64,000 bases of DNA from Escherichia phage Pu-Krd-SF3: sequence record PQ249397; one strand, given 5' to 3'. A program made the translations under genes and the position numbers. Of the stretch, positions 33,137 through 33,223 are shown piece after piece. The first letter of the stretch is position 1. Each line of letters opens with the position of its first letter. Below the pieces are notes generated by a model. The model saw nothing but the letters and a program-made list of their open reading frames with translations. It searched no databases and was not told the DNA's origin.

Positions 33137-33223
33137 GGGGAGTTATCCCGTAGAGGTAGCGGTGTGGACTGTAAATCCATTGTCATTGCGACTCGGGTGG
33201 TTCGACTCCATCACTCCCCACCA
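33137..33223 (+). tRNA. tRNA-Tyr-like (anticodon GUA), class II with long variable arm; possibly a ninth tRNA or pseudo-tRNA
   Basis: 7-bp acceptor ggggagt/actcccc plus acca, anticodon stem gtgga/tccat with loop ctGTAaa, T-loop ttcgact; D-stem has one mismatch. Confidence 0.5.

Follow-up and report, generated by a model that had tools for sequence, protein, structure and literature searches.

Introduction

Genes for transfer RNAs (tRNAs) reading tyrosine codons are known from T-even and T5-like phages, and this study analyzed one such gene, located at 33137-33223 in a stretch of 64,000 nucleotides (nt; hereafter, the window) of Escherichia phage Pu-Krd-SF3 (PQ249397). A tRNA-Tyr gene was listed among the tRNA genes of phage T2L by Brok-Volchanskaya et al. 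2008, who described the T-even tRNA cluster as dispensable in laboratory hosts (PMC2330249). The homing endonuclease SegB recognizes a 27-bp site centered on a conserved T-arm motif, cuts in several T2L tRNA genes, including the tRNA-Tyr gene, which is a weak cleavage site, and drives the homing of segB together with the flanking tRNA genes (PMC2330249).

Phage tRNA-Tyr has also been examined in relation to antiphage defense. Chihara et al. 2026 observed the T6 tRNA-Tyr on northern blots and reported that Septu EcB88 cleaves the Escherichia coli tRNA-Tyr in the variable arm and the T6 tRNA-Tyr at C48 (PMC13096335). Overexpression of the T6 tRNA-Tyr rescued infection, deletion of the tRNA region sensitized the phage, and T6 escapers carried a tandemly repeated 718-bp unit comprising tRNA-Tyr and a C-terminally truncated segB; this amplification requires SegB catalysis plus UvsX and UvsY, and T4, which has SegB and no tRNA-Tyr, cannot escape (PMC13096335). 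Azam et al. 2024 revealed that the tRNA-Tyr of a T5-like phage rescues infection from the tRNA-Tyr-cleaving retron-Eco7, that mutations in its anticodon or stems abolish this rescue, and that the E. coli tRNA-Tyr also rescues when expressed from a strong phage promoter (PMC11555353). The rescue by the E. coli tRNA, together with the anticodon dependence, points to the supply of decodable tRNA-Tyr rather than to nuclease resistance.

Our analysis indicated that 33137-33223 is very probably a functional phage tRNA-Tyr gene, orthologous to those of T2 and T6, that serves the supply of tRNA-Tyr against defense nucleases. The gene has been described before: many GenBank phage records annotate it as tRNA-Tyr, and it has been the subject of experiments in close relatives. 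We established its presence, orthology, and synteny in the window, the purifying selection on its five helices, the register of its D-arm, and its restriction to phages and plasmids. Expression, cleavage by Septu, rescue on overexpression, SegB-dependent amplification, and anticodon-dependent rescue are known from near-identical or homologous genes, by analogy with which the window gene would be processed, charged with tyrosine, and active against defense.

Comparison of the locus with related phages

The 24-kb stretch around the tRNA-Tyr gene was 100% identical to that of Escherichia phage Pu-Krd-SF4 (PQ759884.1), the next best records being approximately 96% identical, and the equivalent site in PQ759884.1 already bears a tRNA-Tyr annotation. 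The T6 tRNA-Tyr gene (AP018814.1, 66468-66554) is also 87 nt long and was identical to the window gene at 85 of the 87 positions. Both phages share the 46-nt spacer between tRNA-Tyr and segB, the segB start, the 4-nt connector between acceptor stem and D-stem, and the D-stem CCGU/GCGG; the spacer and the 5' end of segB were identical over the aligned stretch. At 33177, in the anticodon stem, the window has a G-C pair whereas T6 has G.U, and at 33211, in the T-stem, the window has G.U whereas T6 has G-C. Upstream, T6 carries a T4-type tRNA-Ile and no annotated tRNA-Pro or tRNA-Ser, whereas the window has a T2-type tRNA with the anticodon CAU and the complete order Gln-Leu-Gly-Pro-Ser-Thr.

The T2/T2L gene was closer still (86 of 87 positions identical) and is preceded by an identical CAU tRNA, named tRNA-Met in T2 and located at 33053-33127 on the + strand of the window. 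In T2, however, tRNA-Tyr is followed by tRNA-Asn and tRNA-Arg without segB, whereas in the window it is followed by segB. T4 (NC_000866) has the same locus in the order Gln-Leu-Gly-Pro-Ser-Thr-(CAU tRNA)-segB-Arg, but only 41 nt separate its tRNA-Ile from segB and no tRNA-Tyr lies between them, whereas 142 nt (33128-33269) separate the CAU tRNA from segB in the window. Direct alignment revealed that the entire tRNA-Tyr element is missing from T4 and that the T4 tRNA-Ile does not correspond to the CAU tRNA of the window, the two genes departing from each other after the first approximately 25 nt.

These comparisons bear on the earlier note, made from the sequence alone, which had framed the gene as an unrecognized ninth tRNA of T4 and had proposed a comparison with the tRNA regions of T-even phages. 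Such a comparison was informative, with near-identical tRNA-Tyr genes in T2 and T6 and none in T4; the framing itself did not hold, because reference T4 lacks the element and the gene is known from T2L and T6. The same applies to the tRNA-Ile that the note had counted among the T4 genes, the CAU tRNA of the window being different from that of T4 and identical to that of T2. The window thus holds no overlooked ninth T4 tRNA but represents a relative of T4 whose tRNA locus is, by sequence comparison, a mosaic of segments resembling T4 (Gln through Thr, with Pro and Ser), T2 (CAU tRNA), and T6 (Tyr and segB).

More distant systems were also compared. The copy in Tequintavirus L6jm was 84% identical to the window gene and has an identical variable arm and the 4-nt connector. 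The T5-like (SP15/T5) tRNA-Tyr belongs to another phage family, Demerecviridae, its membership in the present group being judged from relatives of T5 and SP15. The E. coli tRNA-Tyr gene tyrU (NC_000913.3, 4175472-4175556) shares class II architecture, the anticodon GUA in the loop CUGUAAA, G1-C72, A73, the CCA end, and a GUC/GAC variable stem with the phage gene. Nevertheless, tyrU is only approximately 65% identical to it, was not found by blastn at E<=0.01, and differs in its canonical 2-nt connector and in its D-arm, which has a stem of 3 bp and a large loop; the phage gene has a 4-nt connector, a 4-bp stem, and a 7-nt loop.

Gene call and cloverleaf of the tRNA-Tyr gene

Of the nine tRNA genes that ARAGORN reported in the window, the one at 33137-33223 on the + strand was a tRNA-Tyr (anticodon gta), its coordinates identical to those that the earlier note had given for a tRNA-Tyr (GUA). 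The Rfam tRNA model RF00005 scored this region at 30.2 bits, a marginal pass relative to its gathering score of 29 (E-value 0.028 for the whole window and 4.8e-5 for a local 111 nt), whereas the eight neighboring tRNAs of the window scored 48.8-75.4 bits. The ARAGORN scoring that the note had called for returned a tRNA-Tyr, and the covariance model returned a tRNA above its threshold; the RF00005 alignment was mis-registered by 2 nt in the acceptor stem. Single-sequence thermodynamic folding was uninformative (z = -0.91), the minimum-energy fold being no cloverleaf. The evidence beyond chance consists of the covariance model, the ARAGORN call, and, above all, comparative covariation; the assignment further agrees with the identity to T2 and T6.

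All parts of a class II cloverleaf were located on the + strand. The 5' strand of the acceptor stem, GGGGAGU (33137-33143), pairs with ACUCCCC (33213-33219) through seven of seven Watson-Crick pairs. It is followed by the connector UAUC (33144-33147), which has 4 nt instead of the 2 nt of canonical tRNAs, and by the D-arm (33148-33162), with the stem CCGU (33148-33151)/GCGG (33159-33162) and the loop AGAGGUA (33152-33158). The anticodon arm (33164-33180) has a 5-bp stem (GUGGA/UCCAU) and a 7-nt loop, CUGUAAA, with U33, a purine at position 37, and the anticodon GUA at 33171-33173. In the long variable region (33181-33195), the ARAGORN drawing has a 3-bp stem, GUC (33182-33184)/GAC (33190-33192); in the E. 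coli and T6 tRNA-Tyr, the equivalent region is where Septu cuts (PMC13096335). The T-arm (33196-33212) consists of the stem GGUGG/CCAUC, with five of five pairs formed (hence a 7/5 fold), and the GGUUCGA-type T-loop UUCGACU; the gene ends with the discriminator A (33220) and an encoded CCA (33221-33223). The 7-bp acceptor stem, anticodon loop, long variable arm, T-loop, and CCA had all been recognized in the earlier note and appear in the ARAGORN drawing, and its geometry relative to segB was likewise accurate: an in-frame ATG (33228-33230) follows the end of the CCA at 33223, and segB is annotated from 33270 onward, beyond a 46-nt spacer.

Recognition of tRNA-Tyr by the tyrosyl-tRNA synthetase of E. 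coli and other bacteria depends on the anticodon, A73, G1-C72, and the long variable arm. The complete bacterial identity set is present in the window gene.

Compensatory changes in homologs

We aligned 20 distinct homologs, selected by overall similarity alone, and counted base pairs for three candidate structures. When the 7/5 cloverleaf was given a 4-nt connector, standard pairs formed in 99.4% of the 480 cells, and 15 of the 24 pairs exhibited changes on both sides, in 57 cells. None of 500 shuffles reached any of these pairing or covariation measures, and pairing fell to 41-57% when the 3' partners were displaced by 1-3 columns.

The compensation extended to every helix. Six of the seven acceptor pairs exhibited compensatory changes, with 98.6% of cells paired, as did three of the five pairs in both the anticodon stem and the T-stem (100% of cells paired in each) and two of the three pairs of the variable-arm stem. 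The D-stem was paired in 80 of 80 cells and exhibited one compensation, from C-G to U-A, in a T5-like phage. All five helices are thus kept by compensatory changes across at least five different phage groups. The anticodon loop CUGUAAA and the discriminator A were invariant (20/20), and G1-C72 was present in 19 of the 20 homologs. This pattern indicates purifying selection on a working tRNA, unlike that expected of a pseudogene or a protein-binding DNA site.

An association was also noted between connector base 4 (33147, alignment column 11) and position 26 (33163, column 28), with A-G in seven homologs, C-U in six, and U in mixed combinations. Common descent may account for it, or the two bases may form a non-Watson-Crick stacking pair that extends the D-stem.

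D-stem register and the extended connector

The earlier note had described the D-stem as imperfect. This description applies to the standard register of ARAGORN, in which the 2-nt connector is kept and the D-stem becomes UCCC/GCGG with a C.C mismatch; in the register shifted by 2 nt, the stem is a perfect CCGU/GCGG. The Rfam alignment kept this CCGU/GCGG stem clean, but its acceptor starts 2 nt late and the outer T-stem pairs are broken, at the expense of most of the score. The low Rfam score is thus explained by a 2-nt insertion that the model accommodates only through a mis-registered acceptor.

Two other layouts were considered and rejected in the 20 homologs. In the ARAGORN D-stem register, only 60% of cells pair, the C.C mismatch occurs in 20 of 20, and the recruited connector positions vary without compensation. 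The second layout was a 9/3 fold as in allo-tRNA or selenocysteine (Sec) tRNA. The long variable arm is common to the window gene and the tRNA-Sec and allo-tRNA folds (8/5, 9/4, and 9/3), and the Rfam tRNA-Sec model scored the gene at 34.4 bits, higher than the generic tRNA model (30.2) and lower than the Sec gathering threshold of 47. However, the anticodon is GUA rather than UCA, and the 9/3 pairs are absent: pair 8-78 forms in 0 of 20 homologs, pair 9-77 is broken in 5 of 20, and the fold would abolish covarying T-stem pairs.

Judged from these alignments, the apparent imperfection of the D-stem is an artefact of register, and the layout comprises a 7-bp acceptor stem, a U-A-N-N connector, the D-stem CCGU/GCGG, and the loop AGAGGUA. 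In this register, the loop contains the equivalents of A14, G15, G18G19, and A21, so that the D-arm is of ordinary composition with a stem of 4 bp. The departure from the canonical plan lies in the connector, which has 4 nt in the window gene and in all 20 family members; its U8 and A9 are invariant in the family, and the two extra bases vary freely.

For 99 unique phage tRNA-Tyr genes, taken from 120 IMG/VR contigs and from the named phages, we then determined the gene ends anew. Twenty-six of the 99 had a 4-nt connector with four of four D-stem pairs, and 38 had the canonical 2-nt layout. More distant members with a 4-nt connector had the D-stems CCAG/CUGG, UCAG/CUGA, CAGG/CCUG, and CUGU/GCAG; these are supplementary evidence, the D-stem criterion having been used in their selection. 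Other connector lengths were also observed. In Epseptimavirus saus176N (locus L130, 288-378), a 5-nt connector, UAGUA, precedes the D-stem UCGU/GCGA, and the variable arm is longer; another group has the 3-nt connector UAU with GCCU/GGGC. The lineages with 5-nt or 3-nt connectors comprise saus176N and the IMG/VR loci L041, L048, L123, and L012. Connector length seems to be unusually plastic in phage tRNA-Tyr genes.

The connector also affects annotation. Members of the tRNA-Tyr family scored 33-42 bits under the generic model or fell below its reporting threshold, whereas neighboring tRNAs scored 45-77 bits, and the public labels of homologs are inconsistent (tRNA-Tyr, tRNA-OTHER, tRNA-Pseudo-GTA, or no annotation). 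We attribute this inconsistency to the 4-nt connector, which lowers the model scores of the family. Marginal tRNA-model scores and pseudogene labels of these genes should therefore not be taken as decay, and the practical consequence is that this anti-defense tRNA is missed or mislabeled in many phage genomes.

The extended connector throughout the family, well supported by comparative data, may be the sole new point of this analysis. No description of an extended connector between acceptor and D-stem in phage tRNAs was found in the searchable literature, an absence that is no proof of novelty. We propose only tentatively, as a possibility that we regard as doubtful, that these genes constitute a functional tRNA-Tyr lineage restricted to phages and plasmids that departs from the universal tRNA plan, with a 4-nt connector (3 or 5 nt in related lineages), a 4-bp D-stem, and a 7-8-nt D-loop. 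If this layout holds at the RNA level and is undescribed, the family would represent an unusual case in nature of a tRNA that departs from canonical geometry and yet is apparently used in translation. The connector might then have been selected for altered recognition by tRNA-targeting defense nucleases or by modification enzymes, and an anti-defense gene would be systematically under-annotated by covariance-model tRNA finders. Its basic interest lies in showing how far a functioning tRNA may depart from the norm in its elbow region.

Distribution of the family

Homologs of the tRNA-Tyr gene were found in 1,389 phage records, 143 of which were at least 99% identical, with RB7, GiZh, and others at 100%. 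Identity was 95-100% in Tequatrovirus and 95-97% in rV5-like Vequintavirus, approximately 87% in Felixounavirus and 84% in T5-like Tequintavirus, and approximately 81% in Klebsiella T4-like phages and 78% in Enterococcus Schiekvirus. The 5,426 complete E. coli genomes contained 273 copies, all of them on plasmids of approximately 70-120 kb and none on a chromosome. An exact signature of the D-arm and anticodon arm occurred in only 2 of 185,579 species-representative genomes, and ARAGORN reported a tRNA-Tyr at one of these two loci. The occurrence of copies on phages and plasmids only and their near-absence from species genomes show that the family is specific to mobile elements.

Several individual homologs were examined. 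The E. coli plasmid copies were 90-95% identical to the window gene; on plasmid NZ_CP024264.1 (locus L131, 2421-2971), the copy lies in an Asn-Tyr-Thr-Ser tRNA cluster beside genes for DNA ligase, PhoH, and GrxA, and this plasmid looks like a phage-plasmid. Two records labeled as Campylobacter phages, A147 (MG065644.1) and A112b (MG065682.1), contain a 96.6% identical tRNA-Tyr in an rV5-like tRNA neighborhood, which suggests that they are mislabeled or contaminant assemblies rather than true Campylobacter phages. Enterococcus phage TJE1 (ON506927.1; locus L129, 300-385) has a 78%-identical homolog that keeps the acceptor stem, the 4-nt connector, the CCGU/GCGG D-stem, and the GUA anticodon loop. 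Its D-loop has lost the GG (AAGUAGUA), its T-loop is UGCAACU instead of UUCGACU, and it has no CCA; neither ARAGORN nor Rfam reported it. The TJE1 homolog is either a degenerate copy or one in which the tertiary contact between D-loop and T-loop has co-varied.

Proposed function and alternative explanations

The preceding findings, together with the published experiments on orthologs, suggest the following course of events. The tRNA-Tyr is most likely cotranscribed with the other, closely spaced tRNAs of the cluster; host RNase P and 3' processing enzymes would excise it, and the RNA would adopt a class II cloverleaf of the 7/5 type, in which the connector has 4 nt and the D-stem 4 bp. By analogy with its orthologs, it would be processed and charged by the host tyrosyl-tRNA synthetase, read UAU and UAC codons, and play the same anti-defense role in the window phage. 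Its main selective value would probably be to top up the tRNA-Tyr pool when nucleases of the PtuAB type (Septu and retron-Eco7) cut the variable arm. The location of the gene 46 nt upstream of segB suggests that the two can be mobilized and amplified together; SegB breaks and recombination may spread the tRNA-Tyr-segB unit or amplify it in tandem, raising the tRNA dosage.

Several observations weigh against a functional tRNA-Tyr with this role. The generic tRNA model gave the gene a marginal score (30.2 vs. 29 bits), several of its relatives lie under the reporting threshold of that model, and the 4-nt connector is outside canonical tRNA geometry. Some records call the homolog tRNA-OTHER or tRNA-Pseudo or leave it out. 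A simple promoter and terminator scan revealed no convincing promoter, the counts being no higher than in shuffled sequences. The T6 tRNA-Tyr is relatively unstable and is itself cut by Septu, and whether it is a "decoy or supplement" was left open by the authors (PMC13096335). Aminoacylation data for any member of the family were not found in the two studies of anti-defense function (PMC13096335, PMC11555353).

The alternative that survives best is a general role in codon supply, in which the phage tRNA pool is adjusted to an AT-rich phage codon usage without a specific link to defense. This is the classical view of the T-even tRNA clusters, and the dispensability of the cluster in laboratory hosts (PMC2330249) fits it; it is also compatible with, and does not exclude, the supply of tRNA-Tyr against nucleases. 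As the complete account it is nevertheless unlikely, because experiments tie the dosage of phage tRNA-Tyr to escape from Septu and retron-Eco7 (PMC13096335, PMC11555353) and T4 does well without the gene.

A nontranslational decoy, an RNA that chiefly diverts tRNA-Tyr-targeting nucleases as a sacrificial substrate or inhibits them competitively, is less probable still. Septu cuts the T6 tRNA-Tyr as well as that of the host, overexpressed T6 tRNA-Tyr partly protects the host tRNA-Tyr, and the authors considered that it "may act as a decoy or supplement" (PMC13096335); in addition, the noncanonical connector might impair use on the ribosome. However, divergent homologs keep A73, G1-C72 (19/20), and the anticodon loop, suggesting constraint by both the synthetase and decoding. 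Moreover, an anticodon change in the T5-like tRNA-Tyr abolishes rescue, and strongly expressed E. coli tRNA-Tyr can substitute for it (PMC11555353).

The two remaining alternatives had been raised in the earlier note beside a functional tRNA-Tyr, and the latter option is the one that gained strong support, both from the covariation in 20 homologs and from the expressed and rescuing T6 ortholog. That the gene is a pseudo-tRNA, a decaying nonfunctional relic, might be suspected from its marginal Rfam score, the D-stem mismatch in the ARAGORN register, the labels tRNA-Pseudo-GTA and tRNA-OTHER, and the degenerate appearance of the Enterococcus phage homolog. We consider this highly improbable, because compensatory changes keep all five helices, with 99.4% of cells paired, the 2-nt insertion explains the low score, and the T6 ortholog is expressed and active in rescue (PMC13096335).

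No more credible is an element acting at the DNA level only, a SegB recognition or homing site or a repair footprint resembling a tRNA. In its favor, SegB recognizes the tRNA T-arm motif and cuts in the T2L tRNA-Tyr gene (PMC2330249), and segB is the immediate neighbor of the element. Against it, most of the 1,389 homologs are located in genomes or contexts without segB (for example, in T2, in the rV5-like, Felix O1-like, and T5-like phages, and on plasmids), only approximately 78 matching records span the Tyr-segB junction, covariation at the RNA level in the acceptor, anticodon, and variable stems is inexplicable by a protein-binding DNA site, and SegB cleavage is common to all tRNA genes of the cluster. 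A motif scan revealed that the T-arm DNA of the tRNA-Tyr gene (GAGTCGAAC, - strand) is one mismatch from the SegB motif RAWTSGAAC, exact copies of which are present in the tRNA-Gly and tRNA-Thr genes of the window. The proposal of the note that the element is a seg target is thus true only in a weak sense that applies to every tRNA gene of the cluster.

Neighboring features of the locus

The upstream cluster (Gln, Leu, Gly, Pro, Ser, Thr, and CAU tRNA; ARAGORN and Rfam) occupies 32555-33127 on the + strand. Its genes lie 0-10 nt apart, and the last one ends 9 nt before tRNA-Tyr. The CAU tRNA, whose anticodon arm GCGAC-UCAUAAU-CGC we take to be similar to that of E. coli ileX, could be a tRNA-Ile2 carrying lysidine instead of a tRNA-Met. 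Downstream, the GIY-YIG homing endonuclease gene segB occupies 33270-33935 (+ strand; annotation of PQ759884), and the second subcluster, tRNA-Arg(UCU) at 33941-34015 (+ strand; ARAGORN, Rfam, and annotation), lies 3' of it. In reference T4, the annotation 3' of tRNA-Arg includes the stable RNAs rnaD (species 2) and rnaC (species 1); no Rfam family was reported in the matching stretch of the window, 34016-34300. An exact match to the SegB motif, GATTCGAAC, lies on the - strand at 34260-34268.

The predicted SegB protein begins with MHFYLYKITNKINNKIYIG, and its start ATG at 33270 is preceded by the Shine-Dalgarno sequence AAGGA. A 9-bp hairpin, UCAGUUCUU-UAUU-AAGGACUGA, encloses this AAGGA at 33247-33268, the local fold having an energy of -14.4 kcal/mol (z = -2.5). 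Where transcription runs on from the tRNA cluster, such a hairpin could restrain SegB translation, which would agree with the tightly controlled SegB expression considered by Brok-Volchanskaya et al. 2008 (PMC2330249).

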